The position numbers were made by a program, and so were the translations under genes. The notes under the pieces are model-generated. The model worked only from the letters and a program-made list of their open reading frames with translations, was not told the origin of the DNA and did no database searches. DNA of 64,000 nt from an uncultured Gemmatimonadaceae bacterium (GTDB lineage Bacteria > Gemmatimonadota > Gemmatimonadetes > Gemmatimonadales > Gemmatimonadaceae): NCBI GenBank assembly GCA_963817955.1, contig CAWFQK010000004.1, positions 800,001 to 864,000 on the forward strand. Direction: 5' to 3'. Each line of letters starts with the position of its first letter. The first letter of the stretch is position 1. Below, piece by piece: positions 1 through 10,950 of this stretch.

Positions 1-2038
1 CGACCTCGCCGCGTTCCTGCAGCCGAACGATCTCGGCCAGTTTCGCATCGGGGAGCACCTCGGAGAGCACGCGTTCGATCCCCGCCGCGCGTGCCACCGC
101 TTCTGCTGTGTGACGATGGTCTCCGGTGAGCATCACCACCTGCAGTCCCATCGCGCGCAACCGCGCAACGGCGTCGCGTGACGTGGGCTTGATCGGATCG
201 GCGACGGCAATGAGGCCGGCGAACCGACCATCGACGGCGACATACATTGGCGTCTTTCCCTCATTGGCCAGTCGCGCGGCGTCCTGAGAGAGCGTCGACA
301 GATCGATTGCATGATCCGACATCAGCGCCTCGTTGCCGACAACCACAGCCCGGCCACCGATGACACCCATGGCGCCACGTCCCGTGACCGACTGGAAATC
401 CTCCGCATCGGTGAGCGCCGCGCCCTGCTCCTTTGCGTACCGCACGATCGCTTCGGCGAGCGGATGCTCGCTCGAACGCTCCAGCGATGCGACCAGACGA
501 AGCAGGTCCGACTCAGATGCCGGTCCCCCCGGTGCCGGCAACAGGTCGGTCACCGTCGGCTTGCCCTCCGTGACGGTCCCGGTCTTGTCGAGGACCACGG
601 TGGTCAGGTCGCCCGCCCGCTGCAACGCTTCACCGCCCTTGATCAGGATGCCGAACTCGGCGCCCTTTCCCGTCGCCACCATCACCGCGGTTGGAACGGC
701 GAGTCCCATGGCGCACGGACAGGCGATGATCAGCACCGCCACTCCCGCGGCGAACGCCCGCACGACCGCTGCGCCCGGTACCCCGCCGCTTGCCTGCACC
801 GCAACGAACCACACGACGAACGTCGCGATGGCCAGCGAGATGACGACCGGCACGAAGACGGCGCTCACCCGATCGGCGAGCTTCTGGATGGGAGCGCGCG
901 AGCCCTGCGCGTCTCGCATCAGTTTCATGATCTGGGCAAGCACACTGCTGGCGCCGAGCGTCGTCGCGCGGTAGCGGAACGCGCCCGTCCCGTTGATCGT
1001 CGCGCCGATCACGCGGTCACCTGGATGCTTCTCGACGGGAAGGGACTCCCCGGTGAGCATCGACTCGTCGACCGCACTCCGCCCGGACACGACCTCGCCG
1101 TCCACCGGCAGCCGCTCGCCGGGGCGCACGATGACGATGTCGCCCGTGCGCACCTGCTCGATGGACACTTCCAGCTCATGATCCTCGCGGATCACACGGG
1201 CCGTCTTCGGCTGGAGTCGCGCCAGCGCGCGAAGCGCGGCGGACGTCTGGCGCTTGGCCCGCGCCTCGAACGCGTTGCCGGTGAGAATCAACGCGATGAT
1301 GATGACGACGGCTTCGTAATACACGTCCGGCTGCACGCCGTGGCGCAGAAAGAACGCCGGCGCGAGCGTTGCCACGACCGAGTAGACGAACGCCGAGCCC
1401 GTCCCGACCGCTATGAGCGTATTCATATCGGCTGCGTGATGCCGGAATGATGCCCAGGCACGTGTGTAGAAATGGCGTCCCGCCCACGCCACCACGCCAA
1501 GGGTGAGCCCGAGCAGCGTGTACGAGAGGACCGGTGCCGGCAGCGCGTACAGCCACGGCATCACCGAGCGCAGCGCCGGCGAGAGTGAGGTCATCGCCCA
1601 TCGCATGAAGGGATCGGCCACCGAACCGTGCGCGGCGGTCATGAGCGGCATGGAGATGATCATGGCGATCACGCCGACGACGCCGCTGGCGATGGCCTTG
1701 CGGCGCAATTCGCGGAACTCCCGCTCCTGCGCGTCGTCCCGCGCGGCCTGTTCCTCGAACGCACTGCGATCCTGCACGGGAAGCTCGGCGCCGTATCCTG
1801 TCGCGCGAATGGTCTCGACCAGTGCCTCGGGAGACACCGCGGCCGGGTCGTACGCCACCGTGGCGCTGCCCATCATCAGATTCACCGTCGCGTCGACGAC
1901 GCCCGGCGTCTTGCTCAGCGTCCGCTGTACGCGACCCTGACAGGCCGCGCAGGTCATACCCGTGACCGGAATGACGAGCTTGTCGGTGTGTTCCGGTGCC
2001 CCCGGTGCCTGTGGATGTGTGGTGTGCGTGTGCGTCAT
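1..2038 (-). CDS. copA: Copper-translocating P1B-type ATPase (3' end beyond the window)
   Basis: Manual translation from ATG 2038: [10 protein letters not shown]...[11 protein letters not shown] (HMA domain), TGES, ACPCAMG, DKTGT, SEHP. Missing from the ORF track because it has no stop in the window. Confidence 0.95.
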
Positions 2039-2044
2039 ACTCGT

Positions 2045-2428
2045 TTACTCGGCGATGAGACGGCCGTGCAGCATGCTCATGCCGCACGTGAACTCGTATG
2101 TTCCGGGCTTGGGCGGCGTGAGCTCGATTATGGTTTCCTGATGCGCCGGCAGGAACCGCCGCACGCCAAAATCCGGAAAGACGATCTCTTCCGAACAGCT
2201 GGACGTTTCCTGCCGCGCGAAATGGAGCCGCACCGGGCGTCCTGCTTTCACACGGATCGTGGCGGGATCATAGCCGCCGCGGACGACTACAGTGATGTCC
2301 TGCTGACCTGGCGCGGAAGCGACCACGGCAACCGTCCGCCGGGCGAAGAAGAAGTACCAGTTCACCCACACGATCGCCGCAATACCGCCGCCAATGACCA
2401 GCCAGTTCGTGACGCTCGTGGTGCTCAT
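2045..2428 (-). CDS. Membrane-anchored cupredoxin-domain protein (CupA-like copper chaperone)
   Basis: Last 127 aa of ORF 2045..3133: N-terminal TM helix, GGYDP, SSC and YEFTCGMSMLHG; directly upstream of copA. Confidence 0.9.
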   Translation of the reverse strand: MSTTSVTNWLVIGGGIAAIVWVNWYFFFARRTVAVVASAPGQQDITVVVRGGYDPATIRVKAGRPVRLHFARQETSSCSEEIVFPDFGVRRFLPAHQETIIELTPPKPGTYEFTCGMSMLHGRLIAE

Positions 2429-2479
2429 GGTGCGTTCCCTCGTGCAATCGACATCGGAGTAGACGGAGGCGAAAAACAT

Positions 2480-2537
2480 ATACCCCATGTGGGTATGCTC
2501 CGGAAGAGAATTTACATACCCCCGACCGGTATGTCTA
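2480..2537 (-). promoter_or_regulatory. sigma70 promoter of cupredoxin-copA with two CsoR-type operators
   Basis: Minus strand TAGACA (2537-2532)-N17-TAAATT (2514-2509). Palindromes ATACCC-CATGT-GGGTAT (2480-2496) and ACATACC-N7-GGTATGT (2514-2534). Confidence 0.8.
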
Positions 2538-2689
2538 TTCCCGTCGTGCCCAGCAAGCCGAGCGGCAATTGCCGCACATCGTTGCTGCATTCGCCTACAG
2601 ACCAGCCGGCACATCGGCCCGACGTTGAAGGGTGGCCCGCCAGCCTGCGGGCGGCACCAACCGTCAGCAAGCGCTACTGGAGATTCGTT

Positions 2690-3346
2690 ATGAAGACAGA
2701 TTCGGAGCTGCATCAGGACGTGCTCGACGAACTGACGTGGGATTCGCGACTCGACGGAAGAGAAATCGGCGTTGCGGCAGCGGACGGGGTGGTGACGCTG
2801 ACAGGATGTGTGCCGAGCTATGCGGACAAGATTACCGCCGAGCGCGCCGTGGCTCGCGTCGTCGGCGTGAAGGCCGTGGCGAACGACCTGCAAGTGAAGA
2901 TTCCGAGTGCGTTCATGCACTCCGACACCGAAATCGCGCACGCGATCGTGAACGCGTTCACCTGGGACATTCAGGTCCCCCGCGACACGATCAAACCGAG
3001 CGTCGCGGATGGATGGGTGACGCTCGACGGCGAGGTCGAATGGGCGTTCCAGCGCGATGCAGCCGCGCGTGCGGTACGCTATCTCGCCGGCGTACGCGGC
3101 GTCACGAACGACATCAAGGTCATCCCGAAGCATGTATCGCCCGCGGACGTGACCCGGAGCATCAGGCAGGCCCTCGAGCGCCGCGCCGACCGCGCCGCCA
3201 ACCGCATCACGGTGGACACGACTGAGGGCGTCGTCACGCTGTCGGGATCCGTGCCGTCATACGGCGACCGGCGCGCAGCCGAAGGCGCAGCGCTGTCCGC
3301 GCCGGGAGTGAAGGAAGTTCGCGACGAGCTGGCGGTGGAGTTCTGA
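2690..3346 (+). CDS. BON-domain protein (three BON domains, OsmY-like)
   Basis: MKTDSELHQDVLDEL start; three repeats of the GVVTLxG...GVxxVxNxL pattern; GGAG upstream. Confidence 0.9.
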   Translation: MKTDSELHQDVLDELTWDSRLDGREIGVAAADGVVTLTGCVPSYADKITAERAVARVVGVKAVANDLQVKIPSAFMHSDTEIAHAIVNAFTWDIQVPRDTIKPSVADGWVTLDGEVEWAFQRDAAARAVRYLAGVRGVTNDIKVIPKHVSPADVTRSIRQALERRADRAANRITVDTTEGVVTLSGSVPSYGDRRAAEGAALSAPGVKEVRDELAVEF

Positions 3347-4431: not shown

Positions 4432-7400
4432 TCACCCATCGGCCCGAGCCGGCGTCGCCGTGGAACCAACCCGCGGTGCAATCCCGGGCACGACAGTCGG
4501 CGCGACAGCGGAACGGGCAGCCTTGTGCACGGACTGCTCCTTCCAGAGCGAGTACACCGCGGGAATGACCACGAGCGTGAGCACCGTACTGGAGATCATC
4601 CCACCCACCATGGGTGCCGCGATGCGCTTCATCACGCTCGCGCCCGTGCTGTCGCCCCACAAGATTGGCAGCAAGCCGGCCATGATCGCGGTCACCGTCA
4701 TCATCTTCGGCCGCACGCGCTCGACCGCGCCTTCAATGACCGCCTCATACAACTGCTGAACCGTTGGCCGCTCGTCGCGTGCGAGCCGCTCTTTCCACGC
4801 GTGGTCCAGGTAGATGAGCATCACGACGCCGGTTTCCGCGGCGACTCCGGCCAGCGCAATGAACCCGATGGCGACAGCCACCGACCAGTTGTACCCCAGC
4901 CCCCAGACAAACCAGATGCCGCCGATGAGCGCGAACGGGAGCGACAGCATGACGATCAGCGCCTCGCCGACGCTCTTGAAGTTGAAGTAGAGTAATAGAA
5001 AGATGATCGCCAGCGTTGCCGGGATCACGAGCTTCATCCGCTCCTTCGCGCTCTGCATGTACTCGTACTGGCCGCTCCAGACAATGGAGTAACCCGGTGT
5101 GAGCTTCACCATCTTGTTGACCATCTGCTGTGCTTCCGCCACATAGCTGCCGATGTCGCGTCCGACGACGTCCACATACACCCACGCCGTGGGGACTGCG
5201 CCCTCGGTACGGATGACCATCGGACCGGCAACTTGCTTGATCGTCGCGAGTTGGCCGAGCGGGATCTGCGCCACTCCGCCGCCCCCCCCCGCTGCCCCAC
5301 CCGCCATCGGTGCGCCGCCCATGGCGGTGACGCTCCCCGCCGCCACGCCGGCATCGTGCTGCATGGGTACGAGCACTGACGCGAGGCGCTCGGGCGTGTC
5401 ACGCAGCTCCTGCGGATACCGCACGCGCACGCCGTAGCGCTCGCGCCCTTCCACCGTCTGCGTGATGGTCATGCCACCAATCGCGGTCGCGATCACTGCC
5501 TGGACGTCGGCCACGTTCACACCATGCCGCGCCGCAGCCGCGCGATCGATATCGATGTCGAGGTAGTAGCCGGACACAGCGCGCTCCGCGAATGCGCTCC
5601 GCGTCCCGGGCACCATCTGCACGGCCTGCTCCACCTGCTTGCCGAGTCGCTCGAGCTCACCGAGGTCGGGGCCAAATATCTTGACTCCGACTGGCGTTCG
5701 GATGCCCGTGGCCAGCATGTCGATGCGGCCTTTGATCGGCATCGTCCACGCGTTCGTCACACCGGGAATGCGCACCGCCGAGTCCATGGCGGTGATGAGG
5801 CCATCGTAGGTCACGCCCGCGCGCCATTGGTCTTTTGGCTTCAGCGAGATCGTGGTTTCGAACATGTCCAGACCCGCCGGATCCGTTGCGGTGTTGGCAC
5901 GCCCCGCCTTGCCCCATACGTGTTCCACTTCCGGAAAGCGCTTGAGAATGGAATCCTGCTGACGCAGGATTTCGCGCGCCCGAGCCACCGGGAGCCCCGG
6001 CAACGTGGTCGGCATGTAGAGAATCGTGCCTTCGTCGAGCGGCGGCATGAACTCACTCCCGATGCGCGTCCACGGGATCCACGTCAGAATCAGGGCGACC
6101 GCACCGGCGAGAATCACGGGGCCGCGATGCGCCATCACGAAGTCGATCACCGGTCGGTAGACGCGAATCATACCGCGGTTGATCGGGTTCGCGCGTTCCC
6201 GGAAGATGCGACCGCGAATGAACAGCCCCATGGTGACGGGGACGAGCGTCACCGAGAGCAGGCTGGCCGCAGCCATCGAAAACGTCTTCGTGAAAGCGAG
6301 CGGCTTGAACATTCGGCCTTCCTGCCCTTGCAGCGTGAACACCGGCAAGAAGGAAACGGTGATGATGAGGAGCGAGACGAAGAGTGCCGGACCGACTTCC
6401 TTCGCGCTCTCGATCACCACACGCCAGCGCTCGGCGGGCGTCAGGACGGACGAATCGAACGATCGCGTGAGCCTCTCACCAGCGGCCGGATGCCCCGCCT
6501 TCACTGCCACGGCGCGCTCGAGGTGCTTGTGCATGTTCTCGATCATCACGATCGCGGCATCGATCATCGCGCCGATGGCGATGGCGATGCCCCCCAGCGA
6601 CATGATGTCCGCGTTCACACCGAGCGTTCTCATCGCCAGAAAGGCCATGAGGATTCCGACCGGCAACGTGAGGATGGCCACCAACGCCGACTGGGCGTGA
6701 AAGAGAAAGATCACGCAGACGAGCGCGACGATGATCGATTCCTCGATCAACTTTCCCTTGAGCGTATCGATCGCGCGCTCGATGAGCGTACTGCGATCGT
6801 ACACGGGAGTCACCACCACGCCCGGCGGCAGCCCCTTCTGTACCTCGGCGAGCTTGGCCTTCACGGCATTGATCGTCGTCAGTGCGTTCTGGCCGAATCG
6901 CATCACGACAATGCCGCCCACGGCGTCGCCACGACCATCGAGGTCCGCCACGCCGCGGCGTATCGCGGGCCCTACACCGACGTTGCCGAGCTCGGCGACG
7001 CGGATTGGCGTACCCGCGCTCGTCGCGCCGACCACCACGTTCTCGATGTCCGCGATCGACTTGAGGTACCCGAGCCCGCGCACCATGTACTCACGCTCCG
7101 ACAGCTCCATCGTCATCGCGCCCACGTCGTTGTTCGCCGCTTGTATGGCACTCATGACGCGCGTGACGGGAATGCCATAGGCCAGCAGCTTTGCCGGGTC
7201 GATGTCGACCTGGTACTGTTTCTCGAAGCCGCCAATGCTGGAGACTTCTGAAACGCCGGGAACCGCGGTGAGTGCGTAGCGCAGATACCAATCCTGAACG
7301 CTGCGCAACTCCGCGAGATTGAGCCGCCCCGTCGTGTCTTCGAGCGCGTACTGGTACACCCAGCCGAGCCCCGTCGCATCGGGCCCGAGCGTCGGCGTCA

Positions 7401-7773
7401 CCGACGCCGGCAATTTTCCCTTGATGCCGTTCATGTACTCGAGCACGCGTGAGCGTGCCCAGTAGAGATCCGTGCCATCCGCAAAGATGACATAGACGAA
7501 CGACACACCAAAGAACGAGTACCCACGCACGGTGCGCGCGCCGGGCACCTTGAGCATTTCAGCCGCGATCGGGTACGTGACCTGATCCTCGACGATACGC
7601 GGCGCTTGCTCGTTGTAATCGGCCTGGACGATGACCTGCACGTCGGAGAGGTCGGGAAGCGCCTCCAGCGGCGTGCGCCGAACGGCAATCACGCCTCCGA
7701 CGATGGCGGCAACCGTGAACAGAATGACAAGGAGTCTGTTCGCGACCGACCATTCGATGATTCGCTTGAGCAT
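4432..7773 (-). CDS. cusA: CusA/CzcA family heavy-metal efflux RND permease
   Basis: ALPDLSDVQVIV, GPDATGLGWVYQY, AIGAMIDAAIVMIEN, GRIDMLATG, RVRPKMMT; 1113 aa. Confidence 0.95.
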   Translation of the reverse strand: MLKRIIEWSVANRLLVILFTVAAIVGGVIAVRRTPLEALPDLSDVQVIVQADYNEQAPRIVEDQVTYPIAAEMLKVPGARTVRGYSFFGVSFVYVIFADGTDLYWARSRVLEYMNGIKGKLPASVTPTLGPDATGLGWVYQYALEDTTGRLNLAELRSVQDWYLRYALTAVPGVSEVSSIGGFEKQYQVDIDPAKLLAYGIPVTRVMSAIQAANNDVGAMTMELSEREYMVRGLGYLKSIADIENVVVGATSAGTPIRVAELGNVGVGPAIRRGVADLDGRGDAVGGIVVMRFGQNALTTINAVKAKLAEVQKGLPPGVVVTPVYDRSTLIERAIDTLKGKLIEESIIVALVCVIFLFHAQSALVAILTLPVGILMAFLAMRTLGVNADIMSLGGIAIAIGAMIDAAIVMIENMHKHLERAVAVKAGHPAAGERLTRSFDSSVLTPAERWRVVIESAKEVGPALFVSLLIITVSFLPVFTLQGQEGRMFKPLAFTKTFSMAAASLLSVTLVPVTMGLFIRGRIFRERANPINRGMIRVYRPVIDFVMAHRGPVILAGAVALILTWIPWTRIGSEFMPPLDEGTILYMPTTLPGLPVARAREILRQQDSILKRFPEVEHVWGKAGRANTATDPAGLDMFETTISLKPKDQWRAGVTYDGLITAMDSAVRIPGVTNAWTMPIKGRIDMLATGIRTPVGVKIFGPDLGELERLGKQVEQAVQMVPGTRSAFAERAVSGYYLDIDIDRAAAARHGVNVADVQAVIATAIGGMTITQTVEGRERYGVRVRYPQELRDTPERLASVLVPMQHDAGVAAGSVTAMGGAPMAGGAAGGGGGVAQIPLGQLATIKQVAGPMVIRTEGAVPTAWVYVDVVGRDIGSYVAEAQQMVNKMVKLTPGYSIVWSGQYEYMQSAKERMKLVIPATLAIIFLLLYFNFKSVGEALIVMLSLPFALIGGIWFVWGLGYNWSVAVAIGFIALAGVAAETGVVMLIYLDHAWKERLARDERPTVQQLYEAVIEGAVERVRPKMMTVTAIMAGLLPILWGDSTGASVMKRIAAPMVGGMISSTVLTLVVIPAVYSLWKEQSVHKAARSAVAPTVVPGIAPRVGSTATPARADG

Positions 7774-7778
7774 CGCCG

Positions 7779-9014
7779 CTACTCCTTCTTCGTCGTGAGC
7801 GGCTTGGGCGGTGTCGTCATGTCCATGCCCGGCATGTTGCCCATGCCGCCGAGCGCCGTCCCCAGGTTCGACTCCGCGTCTACGAGGAACGTGGCCGATG
7901 AAACCACCTTCTCGCCCGCCGACAACCCGCGGACAATCTCCACGCGATCATCATTGGTTGCACCAAGGGTGACTTCGCGTGACGTGAGCTTGCCGCTCGC
8001 GTCGCGCACGAAGATGATGCTCCGTTCTCCGGTCACCAGCACAGCGGAACGAGGCACGGTGAGCACATTCGCGCGTGCCGTGCCCGCAATCCGAATCGTG
8101 GCGTACATGCCCGGCTTGAGACGGAGATCTCCATTGGGGAGCACGATTCGCACGCGCATGGTGCGTGACTGCGGATCGAGCGTGGGATAGACATACGAAA
8201 TGCGGCCCAACCGGGACTCGCCCGGAAGTGCATCGAAATCTGCGTGTACCGCCTGGCCCACGCGCACGTTGGCGATGTCCTGTTCGAACACTTCGCCATC
8301 CGCCCACACCGTGCTCAGATCCGCCACCTTGTAGAGCGCGTCGCCTGCCATGATCTTCTGTCCGGCAAGCACATTCTTCTCTACGACGTAGCCGCTCGCC
8401 GAGGCGCGCAACGTGAGCGTTTTGCGCACCTGTCCGGTACGCTCGATCTCGGCGATCTCGCCGGCTGGGATGTCCCAATACGAGAGACGCCGCCGCGCCG
8501 ACTCGAGCAGATCGGATGCATTCTGCCGCGCCGCGTCGCTCGCGCCGGCCACTTCGCCCTCGAGGCGTTTGGCGAGCAGCAGCTCTTCTTGCGCGCTGAC
8601 CAACATCGGCGAGTAGATCGTGAGCAGCGGCTGGCCGACCGATACCGGTTGGCCCGTCGCATTGACGAAGAGCTGGTCAACCCAGCCGTCGATCTTTGGC
8701 GCGATCGTCCGCACACGCGTTTCGTCGAACGTGATCTGCCCTACGGTGCGCACCTCTTTCGCGAGCGGACCCACCAGCGCCGTTGCGTACGTCACACCGA
8801 TCCGGCGTTCGTCGCCGGGTGACAGCATCACGGACCGCCCCGTATCGCCGCCGGCGACCATCGCCCCATGATCATGCCCCGCGGCGCCCGGTGCGACTGT
8901 CTTGCCACGAGTCGCCACGTAGACGCCGCCCACGGCTGCGGCGATCACCACTCCATAGATCGACACGCGCATGATGCGCACACCGGCACCCGATCCAGCG
9001 TTGTCTCCGTTCAT
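7779..9014 (-). CDS. cusB: Efflux RND periplasmic adaptor (CusB-like)
   Basis: IYSPMLVSAQEE, LKPGMYA, FLVDAESNL; His/Met-rich ends (GHDHGAM, GMGNMPGMDM). Confidence 0.92.
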   Translation of the reverse strand: MNGDNAGSGAGVRIMRVSIYGVVIAAAVGGVYVATRGKTVAPGAAGHDHGAMVAGGDTGRSVMLSPGDERRIGVTYATALVGPLAKEVRTVGQITFDETRVRTIAPKIDGWVDQLFVNATGQPVSVGQPLLTIYSPMLVSAQEELLLAKRLEGEVAGASDAARQNASDLLESARRRLSYWDIPAGEIAEIERTGQVRKTLTLRASASGYVVEKNVLAGQKIMAGDALYKVADLSTVWADGEVFEQDIANVRVGQAVHADFDALPGESRLGRISYVYPTLDPQSRTMRVRIVLPNGDLRLKPGMYATIRIAGTARANVLTVPRSAVLVTGERSIIFVRDASGKLTSREVTLGATNDDRVEIVRGLSAGEKVVSSATFLVDAESNLGTALGGMGNMPGMDMTTPPKPLTTKKE

Positions 9015-10414
9015 TCTGCACCTCGCGCCGCACGCGTGGCGGCGATCTGATTCGGGTCAAAGAGCTCACGCCCAGTCAGCATCTCCAGCTCGGCCCAGGA
9101 TTTTCCCTGGTCGGCATCGAGCGCATAGAGCTCCTGCTGATACGTGTTGGCCGCCATCTGGTCGTCGAGCAACGTCATGAAGTCCACATTGCCAACGCGA
9201 TACGCCGCGAGCGCGGAGGCGACGGTCGCCATGGCCTGCGGGAGCACCGTCGTCCGATAGAGCTGCGACAGGTTTCTCGCGCGAACGAGATTCGCGTACG
9301 CCTCACCGATCTTTCCGCGTGTGTCCGCGCGCATGCTGGCCAAGTCCGCCTGCGCCATTTGCTTCATGGCGGCGGCTTCCTCGCGCATTCGGAACTGCCG
9401 GTCACGGGCGAACACCGGGATCGATGCGCCGAACATGAGACTGCCCATGCGCTCGGTTCCCATCTGACCACCCTGCTGTGCGTACTGCGCGCCAATCTGG
9501 AGGTCGGGCCAGATCTCCTTGCGCGCCAGCGTCTCAGAGGCCTCCGCGGCGCGAACGTCGTCGAGGCCCGCGCGGATCATTGGACGATCGCCCAACGCGA
9601 ACGCTTCAAGGACTGAGCGGGCCGGCAGTGAGTCTGGAAAGCTCGGGAGCGCGGGCGAGGCGACGGCCGCATCGGATGCGCGATCGAGCAACGCATCGAG
9701 TCTCGCGACCATCGACTGCCGCATCGCCTGCATCCGCAGCGTGTCCTCGGCCATCTTCGCGATCTGCACCTGTGCGCGAAGCACGTCCGTCTGGCGTCCC
9801 TGGCCCACGCGGTACATCGATTCTGCGGTCTTCTCGATGTCCTGAAGCAGACGCAACGTCTCGCGTGCCACGCCAAGGCTCTGGTCCGTGGTATAGAGAT
9901 CGTAGAAGGCCATGGCGGTCTGACTGCGGAGGTCCCAGACCACGTCGTTGGCGCGCTCATTCGTGGCTTGGGCCTGTGCACTTGCCGCTCGGCCAGCCAT
10001 CGCGAGCTTTCCGCCGAGCGGCAGCATTTGCATGACCTGGAATTGCGTCATGCCCAGCGTCGCCATGGGCGCCAGGTTCGGCAACTCGTAGTTCATGAAT
10101 CCGAGCTGCACCTGGGGGTCCGGCGGTCGTGTAGCGCCTGGGACACGCGCCACTGCTGCCTGGGCGAGCGAACGAGCCGCCGAGACGCGTGGATTCCCGC
10201 TCTGCACTCGAGCGTAGAGATCCCCGAGTCGAACGACTGCGCGAGCGTCAGGCGGCAGTTGGGATCCGGCTGTCGCCTGCGCCAGCGCGGGCGCCTGCCA
10301 CGCGAGCGGGATGATAGTTGAAATGATCGCGAGAGTCCGCCGCACTCGCTGGAATGCGAGCGCGCGACGGCCCTGGCGTCGCCGAGAAAAACACATTGTA
10401 TTGAACGCCTCCAC
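9011..10414 (-). CDS. TolC-family outer-membrane efflux protein (CusC-like)
   Basis: OEP repeats (YRVGQGRQTDVLRAQ, YRVGNVDFMTLLD); ATGA overlap with cusB. The start may be ATG 10396. Confidence 0.9.
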   Translation of the reverse strand: MEAFNTMCFSRRRQGRRALAFQRVRRTLAIISTIIPLAWQAPALAQATAGSQLPPDARAVVRLGDLYARVQSGNPRVSAARSLAQAAVARVPGATRPPDPQVQLGFMNYELPNLAPMATLGMTQFQVMQMLPLGGKLAMAGRAASAQAQATNERANDVVWDLRSQTAMAFYDLYTTDQSLGVARETLRLLQDIEKTAESMYRVGQGRQTDVLRAQVQIAKMAEDTLRMQAMRQSMVARLDALLDRASDAAVASPALPSFPDSLPARSVLEAFALGDRPMIRAGLDDVRAAEASETLARKEIWPDLQIGAQYAQQGGQMGTERMGSLMFGASIPVFARDRQFRMREEAAAMKQMAQADLASMRADTRGKIGEAYANLVRARNLSQLYRTTVLPQAMATVASALAAYRVGNVDFMTLLDDQMAANTYQQELYALDADQGKSWAELEMLTGRELFDPNQIAATRAARGAE

Positions 10415-10500
10415 AAGAGCATCCCGCCACCAGCTTGGGACGCGACGTCACCTGCTCGCCTCGCCGCGTTCGCGGCGAAGAGCGCACTCCGAGTGGGAGG

Positions 10501-10950
10501 CTAGGCGCGCGGAGGTGGGACTTCGGGCGCGAACGCGGGCCCGAGGGGCATATCGGCAGATGCGACGACCTGCACCGCGACGGGCCTGGGCGCGGTCACC
10601 AACGCCGTAGCGGCCGGCGTGGCAGAAACGGCAATGACACAGTTCGCCATCGACGCACATCCGCTCGGAGCGAACGGTACGTCGCAGGACTTGCCGGTTC
10701 CCGTCATGTCACACCCGCCAACCGGCGCCTTGGGTGCGCTCGGCGACTTGCCGGCCATGTCCGTCATGGCCGAGTCGTGCGCTCCGTGATGGGCGTGTCC
10801 TGCGCCGGCGGCTTCCATGGCACCCGATGACGCTGTCGCGTGGTCGCCATGCATGGGACAGACCGTGCCGCTCGCCAGCACTGAAAGCTGGAAGAGCAGC
10901 GCGCCCGAGAGCACGGCAACTATGCGATGAAGACGCTTGAGGCGGGGCAT
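10501..10950 (-). CDS. Small His/Met/Cys-rich membrane or exported protein ending PEVPPPRA; candidate regulatory leader of cusCBA
   Basis: Basic N-terminus plus hydrophobic helix, CPMHGDH, HAHHGAHDSAM, several Cys, Pro-rich C-terminus; directly upstream of the cusC-like gene. Confidence 0.75.
   Translation of the reverse strand: MPRLKRLHRIVAVLSGALLFQLSVLASGTVCPMHGDHATASSGAMEAAGAGHAHHGAHDSAMTDMAGKSPSAPKAPVGGCDMTGTGKSCDVPFAPSGCASMANCVIAVSATPAATALVTAPRPVAVQVVASADMPLGPAFAPEVPPPRA

Follow-up and report, generated by a model that had tools for sequence, protein, structure and literature searches.

In a 64,000-nt stretch (the window) of the Gemmatimonadaceae genome GCA_963817955.1, contig CAWFQK010000004.1, to which all window coordinates refer, we analysed a small open reading frame (ORF) that heads an operon for a CusCBA-like metal efflux pump and is called the leader below. 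An earlier note on this DNA had described a 149-amino-acid (aa) ORF lying before cusC, cusB and cusA, and this arrangement was confirmed on the minus strand (Table 1). The genes that follow the leader encode an outer-membrane factor (OEP), a periplasmic adaptor (MFP) and a pump of the resistance-nodulation-division (RND) type, which scored 1161 bits against E. coli CusA versus 508 against ZneA. The spacer of ~90 nt given in that note holds for the distance from the leader to the first in-frame GTG of the OEP gene (86 nt; position 10414) but not for the ATG at 10396, which lies 104 nt away and has GGAGG before it. An offset of 104 nt falls inside the range of 82-172 nt found for the first in-frame ATGs in the 42 loci of the RNA analysis described below.

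Table 1. Features of the leader and the pump operon in the window (OEP, outer-membrane factor; coordinates on the 64,000-nt stretch).
Feature	Position	Strand	Remarks
CutF-like leader ORF, 149 aa	10501..10950	(-)	ATG 10950, stop TAG 10503..10501
Basic N-terminus and hydrophobic helix, residues 2-27	10870..10947	(-)	probable Sec signal or membrane anchor
CPMHGDH, residues 31-37	10840..10860	(-)	contains C31
Cys cluster C80-x8-C89-x8-C98-x5-C104	10639..10713	(-)	C31 is an additional Cys
Linker C104 to P145, 40 residues	10519..10638	(-)	length-conserved, sequence-variable
Putative stall motif codons CCA CCU CCG CGC GCC UAG (P145 P146 P147 R148 A149 stop)	10501..10518	(-)	contain CCUCC
Post-stop box GCCUCC (last stop base and 5 nt)	10496..10501	(-)	complementary to GGAGGC 10412..10407; same register in relatives
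Local GC hairpin CGCCGC-GAAC-GCGGCG	10462..10477	(-)	no U-tract after it
Intergenic spacer, 104 nt to probable OEP start	10397..10500	(-)	
GGAGG, Shine-Dalgarno-like element of the OEP gene	10408..10412	(-)	11 nt 5' of ATG 10396
Outer-membrane factor (OEP), CusC/TolC-like, PF02321	9011..10396 (or from in-frame GTG 10414)	(-)	
CusB-like periplasmic adaptor, PF16576 HlyD_D23	7779..9014	(-)	
CusA/CzcA-family heavy-metal RND pump	4432..7773	(-)	TIGR00914, 1171 bits

The leader protein carries all three of the motifs that the earlier note had listed, namely CPMHGDH, HAHHGAHDSAM and the C-terminal PLGPAFAPEVPPPRA, and its last residues read APEVPPPRA-stop. The cysteine spacing given there as C-x7-C-x7-C-x5-C had to be corrected to x8-x8-x5, with C31 in addition. 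The N-terminal helix is followed by A-S-G and then by T-V-C31. Using an 88-row alignment, AlphaFold2 (AF2) predicted the helix at residues 2-27 with a predicted local distance difference test (pLDDT) score of 91-96 and the remainder as coil (pLDDT 50-60; mean pLDDT 65), and it predicted no folded periplasmic domain beyond the helix. Three other readings of the leader ends were considered and rejected. A lipoprotein signal is not supported by the conserved S-G-x-x-C, which has no lipobox; a PEP-CTERM-like sorting signal would have a hydrophobic segment 3' of the terminal motif, and none is present; and the PxxPxR of an SH3 class II ligand is out of register in the leader tail.

Pfam and NCBIfam scans assigned the leader to no family, a word-based homologue search returned one relative only, and a scan for related loci using a single protein found none. 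An exhaustive phmmer search against 1.84 billion representative proteins, on the other hand, returned 121 representatives at E<=1e-3 (39 at E<=1e-10), and the leader is therefore not a chance reading frame. Together with the query and P0002, these proteins form a family set of 123, of which 119 end in PPP-x-x-stop, 118 in PPP followed by R or K and one further residue, and 66 in exactly LPPPRA. The usual ending is APELPPPRA; the exceptions to PPP-x-x-stop were P0044, P0068, P0109 and P0079, the last of which ends in SLPPRA. Mean column identity in an alignment of the 88 full-length members was only 27%, whereas C98, C104, P142, P146 and P147 were invariant and R9, A12, Q21, C31, C89, P92, P145 and R148 were kept in at least 90% of members. 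The commonest cysteine spacing was C-x8-C-x5-C (84 members). From the last cysteine to the first proline of PPP, 115 of 119 members have 38, 39 or 40 residues, of poorly conserved sequence, and the four cysteines and this distance are held as strictly as PPP. The terminal motif and the cysteine pattern are thus kept while the middle diverges, which the earlier note had named as a check on its proposal. Its emphasis on the His and Met runs as ligands was not borne out, as these are not among the conserved columns of the 88 members.

When 401 genomes of the phylum were searched in six frames, 42 had a match at E<=0.01, many of these matches being weak and spurious; 20 of the 30 loci returned hold a family ORF, and 19 of these 20 belong to the taxonomic family of the window (L017, of genome G157, is counted among the 20 and enters no other result). 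A pattern scan of named genomes, built from a narrower alignment, yielded 38 loci, all from Gemmatimonadaceae, Gemmatimonadales or Gemmatimonadota metagenome-assembled genomes except for one record labelled 'bacterium'. Because the search pattern was APELPPPRA and so selects for that ending, the named-genome loci are not usable for counting the motif.

Synteny was the second check that the earlier note had proposed, and the homologues do sit upstream of metal transport genes: the next gene encodes an OEP after 35 of 40 family ORFs in the named-genome loci and in 16 of 19 relatives' loci with extended flanks. Among these 19, OEP-MFP-RND lies directly downstream in 14, the OEP gene is followed by the contig end in two, two others end too early to tell, and one (L049, G371:C9) holds only RND fragments. 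L049 is the sole relative with its downstream operon reduced in this way, and its motif has decayed to PEIPPLRA, which fits a motif that is kept only as long as the pump is.

A few loci show other arrangements. In L057 (1170-3260) and L058 (1377-3363), one of which is in the window's genus, a second family leader ending in PEPPPPRA or PEPPPPRI lies ~2 kb upstream of the usual one, with the gene order leader, a ~500-aa protein without a Pfam family, leader and OEP-MFP-RND. In L052 (7090-7465), a second family ORF ending in PEPPPPKA stands just 3' of the RND gene, and the ORF that it heads stays open over 329 aa or more. The OEP, MFP and RND genes of the same-genus genome G337 (L038/L058) match the window proteins in several separate pieces, which suggests frameshifts or assembly errors.

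The surroundings of the window operon point to copper. On the same strand, 3' of cusA, lie a gene for a cupredoxin-like protein (2045..3133) and one for an HMA-domain P-type ATPase (2..2038) that runs off the window, and with these two and the CusA-like pump the locus is therefore a copper island. The cupredoxin ORF (Cupredoxin_1, minus strand, E 9e-21) overlaps an opposite-strand ORF with three BON domains (1628..3346, plus strand, E 3.5e-45). As the earlier note had stated, no cusF accompanies the operon: no CusF (PF11604) was found at E<=0.01 in the whole 94%-complete genome, and the leader itself had no CusF match. Elongation factor P (EF-P) is present in the genome. Cu/Ag RND pumps are usually described as being under the control of two-component systems. 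No regulator family was detected among the scanned ORFs flanking this operon, and a built-in translational sensor appears to take the regulator's role at this pump locus.

Overall, we consider it probable that the leader is a cis-acting nascent-chain metal sensor of the CutF type that responds most likely to Cu(I)/Ag(I) and gates the downstream cusCBA-like operon. CutF of Rhodobacter capsulatus is a small Sec-exported protein that heads the cutFOG operon, in which Cu on a periplasmic CxxxC during co-translational export leads to stalling at a C-terminal proline motif (PMC9973294). According to the published CutF work, this Cu-induced stalling melts a stem-loop that masks the ribosome-binding site of the next gene (PMC9973294; 10.1101/2025.02.05.636593). 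The CutF motif is P109-EPEGPPPRL-118; regulation is abolished when PPP is changed to PAP, and losing EF-P has the same effect as Cu (10.1101/2025.02.05.636593). Another possibility is a plain EF-P-dependent slow spot without any metal input, at which the leader merely couples pump translation to its own translation or to the state of EF-P. Stalling at PPP that depends on EF-P is generic, and an efp mutant makes CutO production independent of Cu (10.1101/2025.02.05.636593). The strictness with which the four cysteines and their distance to PPP are maintained, together with the position of the locus in a copper island, nonetheless makes this explanation highly improbable.

A catalogue of 5,334 'CutF-like' proteins, mostly from Pseudomonadota and Bacteroidota, has been compiled by filtering for fewer than 150 aa, PP among the 15 C-terminal residues, a signal peptide and, downstream, a gene that shares the strand; the commonest downstream neighbour is the OEP of an RND system (PMC9973294). 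At 149 aa, with PPP at residues 145-147 of 149 and an OEP gene 86-104 nt away on the same strand, the leader falls within the filters for size, terminal proline and downstream gene. Within the main text and two small supplements of PMC9973294, Gemmatimonadota are not mentioned, and literature searches on CutF in Gemmatimonadota and on 'CutF-like' returned no paper on such a family.

The CxxC and RAPP motifs of DUF2946 proteins (PMC9426467) are absent from the leader, which has its cysteines at 31, 80, 89, 98 and 104 and ends in PPPRA. It differs likewise from the RAPP/RAGP arrest peptides, as the motif is P-P-P-R-A and the downstream gene encodes the OEP of a metal pump. Among the 88 family members, DUF2946 touches one (E=0.074) and DUF6153 touches six weakly (best E 0.029). 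An hhalign comparison of the leader family with RAPP-type DUF2946 ORFs of the phylum, in which the DUF2946 side comprised four sequences only, gave a probability of 2%. A six-frame genome search with PF11162 (DUF2946) at E<=10 matched two other loci and not the leader, and no homologues were returned when the DUF2946 ORF of this genome served as query. The CopL_fam model (NF033807, cut-off 40 bits) had no match to the leader at E<=0.1, nor any in a genome search at E<=10, and the leader had no Pfam match to CzcI (PF28244). In language-model features, clusters with the name 'CopL family metal-binding regulatory protein' were nearest (0.96) and clusters partly with DUF2946 or CzcI came next, which we regard as a lead and not as a test. 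Two leader-type ORFs touched by DUF2946 do occur in the genome of the window. One of them, L035 (G000:C4:698489-698755, outside the window), has H-C-x3-H-x5-C-x2-C, ends in CRAPPALVLGLA and is CruR-like, of the RAPP type; the other, L036 (G000:C2:96446-96772), is 149 aa long, has a CCCPCC cluster and ends in GPPPLHV.

The choice of codons at the terminal motif was compared across 56 non-identical loci. The middle proline codon is CCT (CCU in the RNA) in 41 loci, compared with 14 for the first proline and 11 for the third, and the background use of CCT is 8 of 215 proline codons in seven window genes. As a result, CCTCC (CCUCC) occurs within the PPP codons in 44 loci. The stop codon is TAG (UAG) in 39, and the arginine codon varies (CGC 17, CGG 15, CGA 12, AGA 7, AGG 3). 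We therefore take P-P-P-R-A to be selected as amino acids. Added selection at the nucleotide level appears to produce the CCUCC, which resembles an anti-Shine-Dalgarno (anti-SD) sequence, and to fix the stop codon as part of a helix.

This helix would form with the start region of the OEP gene. In relatives, the stop codon and the bases that follow it are complementary to a box 10-25 nt 5' of the OEP ATG, and both boxes change together, as in AGUCCAC/GUGGACU, AGUCCAG/CUGGACU, AGUCCAU/AUGGACU, ACCUCUC/GAGAGGU, GCUUCCC/GGGAAGC, AGUCCAACUC/GAGUUGGACU and UGAUCUCC/GGAGAUCA. The complementarity was evaluated in 42 of the 56 loci, those with a downstream ORF of at least 400 aa and a first in-frame ATG at 80-200 nt from the stop; 14 loci had no start of this kind and were excluded. 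We took the longest helix without gaps that positions -2..+10 relative to the stop can form with positions -32..-5 relative to the OEP ATG. Its mean length was 6.17 bp in cognate pairs, 4.96 bp in non-cognate ones and 4.65 bp in shuffled sequences. A helix of at least 6 bp was found in 25 of the 42 loci compared with 17.5% of shuffles, and none of 10,000 label permutations reached the observed mean, although permutation and shuffle counts of this kind overstate independence because the loci are related.

The covariation was clearest in an alignment of 22 rows picked for an AGUC-type post-stop box. Here the 7-bp helix was 83.7% paired, versus 27-36% when the partner was slid, and one pair occurred as CG:10, GC:4, AU:1 and UG:1. 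None of 500 shuffles reached the observed pairing, double changes or covariation score. Ten of the 42 loci are in neither of the two RNA alignments, being of neither class or duplicates (L037, L039, L046, L050, L053, L071, L074, L077, L090 and L091). The AGUC-type relatives also have a small hairpin, ACAAC...GUUGU, directly 3' of the post-stop box (A4 columns 31-37 with 60-64), which is 67% paired and shows a few double changes (CG:12 UA:3; AU:7 GC:2 CG:1); the hairpin of the window differs. In the minimum-free-energy fold of the window, CCUCCGCG of the Pro-Pro-Arg codons pairs with UGUGGAGG, and the same GGAGG could pair with the post-stop GCCUCC instead.

If the leader is a metal sensor of this type, the switch may work as follows. 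The N-terminal helix would target the nascent chain to the membrane or the Sec translocon. With the ribosome at PPP (codons 145-147), the conserved linker of 38-40 residues would fill the exit tunnel and would therefore leave the cysteine cluster (C31, C89, C98, C104) newly emerged from it. In the absence of metal, the ribosome would be able to finish with the help of EF-P and the export pull, and a helix of the PPP-R-A-stop/post-stop segment with the GGAGG region would keep the OEP ribosome-binding site closed. Metal on the emerged cysteines would, as has been proposed for CutF, prolong the pause against EF-P and the export pull, and the ribosome would dwell on PPP-R-A-stop. There it would occupy the 5' arm of the helix, leaving the OEP start free, and the pump would be made. 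With Pro146 in the P site, the PPP-R-A codons would lie in the decoding centre and mRNA channel, with the leading edge of the ribosome at the stop/post-stop box.

More tentatively, and with clearly less confidence, we suggest that the stall signal and the RNA switch could share the same ~25 nt. CCN-CCU-CCN would spell the anti-SD-like CCUCC, the stop and the next 5-8 bases would form the helix that covaries with the OEP leader, and 'PPP + 2 codons + stop' would act as a ruler that places the leading edge of the paused ribosome on the helix. If this is true, the near-universal PPPRx-stop ending, which CutF has as well, would be set by the geometry of the ribosome footprint and not by peptide chemistry alone, and no CutF-type switch would have been documented earlier for a CusCBA pump or in Gemmatimonadota.

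Several results weigh against the proposed sensor and its RNA switch. At the protein level, PF11162 (gathering score 23.7 bits) had no match to the leader at E<=1, and homology of the leader to DUF2946 or CutF was not detectable from sequence; in addition, no ribosome-binding site is evident 5' of the leader ORF. At the RNA level, the helix in the window-type subclade (10 rows) was 75.4% paired versus 35-67% when slid, a value that 10 of 500 shuffles reached, and its covariation was not significant (87 of 500 shuffles). The stop/post-stop pairing thus seems to covary clearly in one subclade and weakly in that of the window. RNAalifold found 0 consensus pairs on the gappy 22-row alignment, and shuffled sequence folds as well as the 166-nt region of the window does (z = -0.08). 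RNAduplex energies for long arms were close together in cognate (-24.2), non-cognate (-22.9) and shuffled pairs (-21.8), a comparison that is uninformative since the RNA is GC-rich. For a ribosome that has Pro146 in its P site, the post-stop box begins ~13 nt downstream, at the edge of the ribosome and not within it. The footprint geometry is compatible with unmasking at a PPP pause but does not prove it, and a pause at R-A-stop would be equally compatible.

It is also conceivable that the leader acts on transcription, in the manner of CruR. By pausing at the leader end, a ribosome would then shield a C-rich Rho loading site, and the metal-modulated pause would decide whether RNA polymerase reads on into cusCBA, instead of or alongside unmasking of the ribosome-binding site. 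The composition of the region fits this, with C exceeding G from ~50 nt before the ORF end to ~20 nt past it (in the window, C is 0.44-0.49 and G 0.27-0.31; over 55 loci of the family, the mean C-G is +0.16 to +0.20), and CruR itself uses a C>G bubble and Rho (PMC9426467). A promoter and terminator scan of the locus found nothing, although the sigma-70 consensus may not apply to this phylum, and the lack of an intrinsic terminator in the spacer would likewise suit Rho. The C excess is, however, largely a by-product of the Pro/Ala codons of the conserved motif, and the spacer is GC-rich with a strong hairpin, whereas Rho sites are unstructured. A purely Rho-based switch would also need no conserved complementarity to the OEP start region, and overall we consider this explanation rather unlikely.

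Alternatively, the leader could be a stable, trans-acting extracytoplasmic metal-binding protein that substitutes for CusF or serves as a CzcI-like accessory or regulator of the pump, with APELPPPRA as a docking peptide for a pump subunit or protease. The missing CusF, the conserved cysteines and local His/Met runs, and the strict linkage to OEP-MFP-RND would all fit such a protein; a motif exactly at the free C-terminus could be a recognition tail, and the nearer neighbours in language-model features include a CzcI-like cluster. This account leaves unexplained the fixed spacer of 38-40 residues with its variable sequence, as well as the position of the rare CCU, the UAG preference and the covarying stop/post-stop pairing. 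Nor did AF2 provide a folded domain beyond the helix, and CutF, whose C-terminal motif is the same, works in cis only and is quickly broken down once exported (PMC9973294). We regard a trans-acting protein as unlikely, and the CusF-replacing chaperone that the earlier note had offered as its alternative is the less likely of its two proposals.

The other of those two proposals, an arrest peptide that controls an efflux operon with a logic opposite to that of CruR, is supported by the conservation of the motif and by synteny. The account of CruR on which it drew (DUF2946, CXXC, RAPP and a TonB-dependent transporter) agrees with PMC9426467. The opposite logic has already been shown experimentally for R. 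capsulatus CutF, so the idea was right and the kind of mechanism is not new; the mechanism class is published and was already predicted for OEP/RND neighbours. Our analysis adds modestly to this, with a family of Gemmatimonadaceae that is unannotated and escapes existing models, a distinct cysteine motif and an unusually clear overlap between the stall codons, the stop codon and the anti-SD arm. Entire clades of this class of regulators are not recognised by current Pfam and NCBIfam models, and such genes therefore stay unannotated as 'hypothetical'. The CutF authors leave open how the extracytoplasmic metal signal reaches the ribosome through the nascent chain, and the more than 100 sequence clusters found here would be a clean natural data set for that question.

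Among known systems, CruR (Bp2923 of Bordetella pertussis, a DUF2946 protein) resembles the leader in that it is an upstream ORF heading a copper-related operon and has an export signal, a motif of cysteines, a conserved distance from this motif to a C-terminal Pro-containing arrest motif and a C>G-rich 3' end. Its Cys-to-arrest-motif distance is 45, which was probed by shortening and lengthening, and the protein is described as predicted to be poorly structured (PMC9426467). CruR differs in having CXXC, RAPP three residues before its end, an importer as target and a spacer of 162 nt; in addition, as that source describes it, Cu relieves stalling and triggers Rho termination, and EF-P is not involved. 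CopL of Xanthomonas/Stenotrophomonas is likewise a small Cys/His-rich ORF upstream of copper-resistance genes that is needed in cis for Cu-induced expression (PMC9973294), but it precedes copA/copB and not an RND pump. CzcI of Cupriavidus metallidurans lies, like the leader, directly upstream of czcCBA-type RND genes and is a suggested metal-sensing regulator, but it is described as having no C-terminal proline motif (PMC9973294). SecM, ApdA and ApdP share with the leader an N-terminal export signal and an arrest motif few codons before the stop, with the next gene controlled via RNA structure (PMC7897499, PMC10951233). As described there, their motifs are R-A-P/G-P and they monitor Sec/YidC activity and not metal, whereas the leader has P-P-P-R-A and a metal-pump target.

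The closest likeness is to CutF. Both are small proteins, exported in CutF and probably so in the leader, that head a copper-resistance operon and are followed by a short spacer whose RNA can hide the ribosome-binding site of the next gene. Both end in PPP-R-hydrophobic-stop (PEPEGPPPRL in CutF, APEVPPPRA in the window). In CutF, too, 40 residues separate the last Cys of the motif from PPP, as calculated from its published numbering (C45 in mature numbering, a mature part of 90 aa and PPP at 114-116 of 118). The two differ in the Cys motif, which is CxxxC in CutF and C...C-x8-C-x5-C in the leader, and in the target, a multicopper oxidase in CutF and a CusCBA-type pump here. In the window leader, moreover, the 5' arm of the proposed helix would begin in the stop codon itself.

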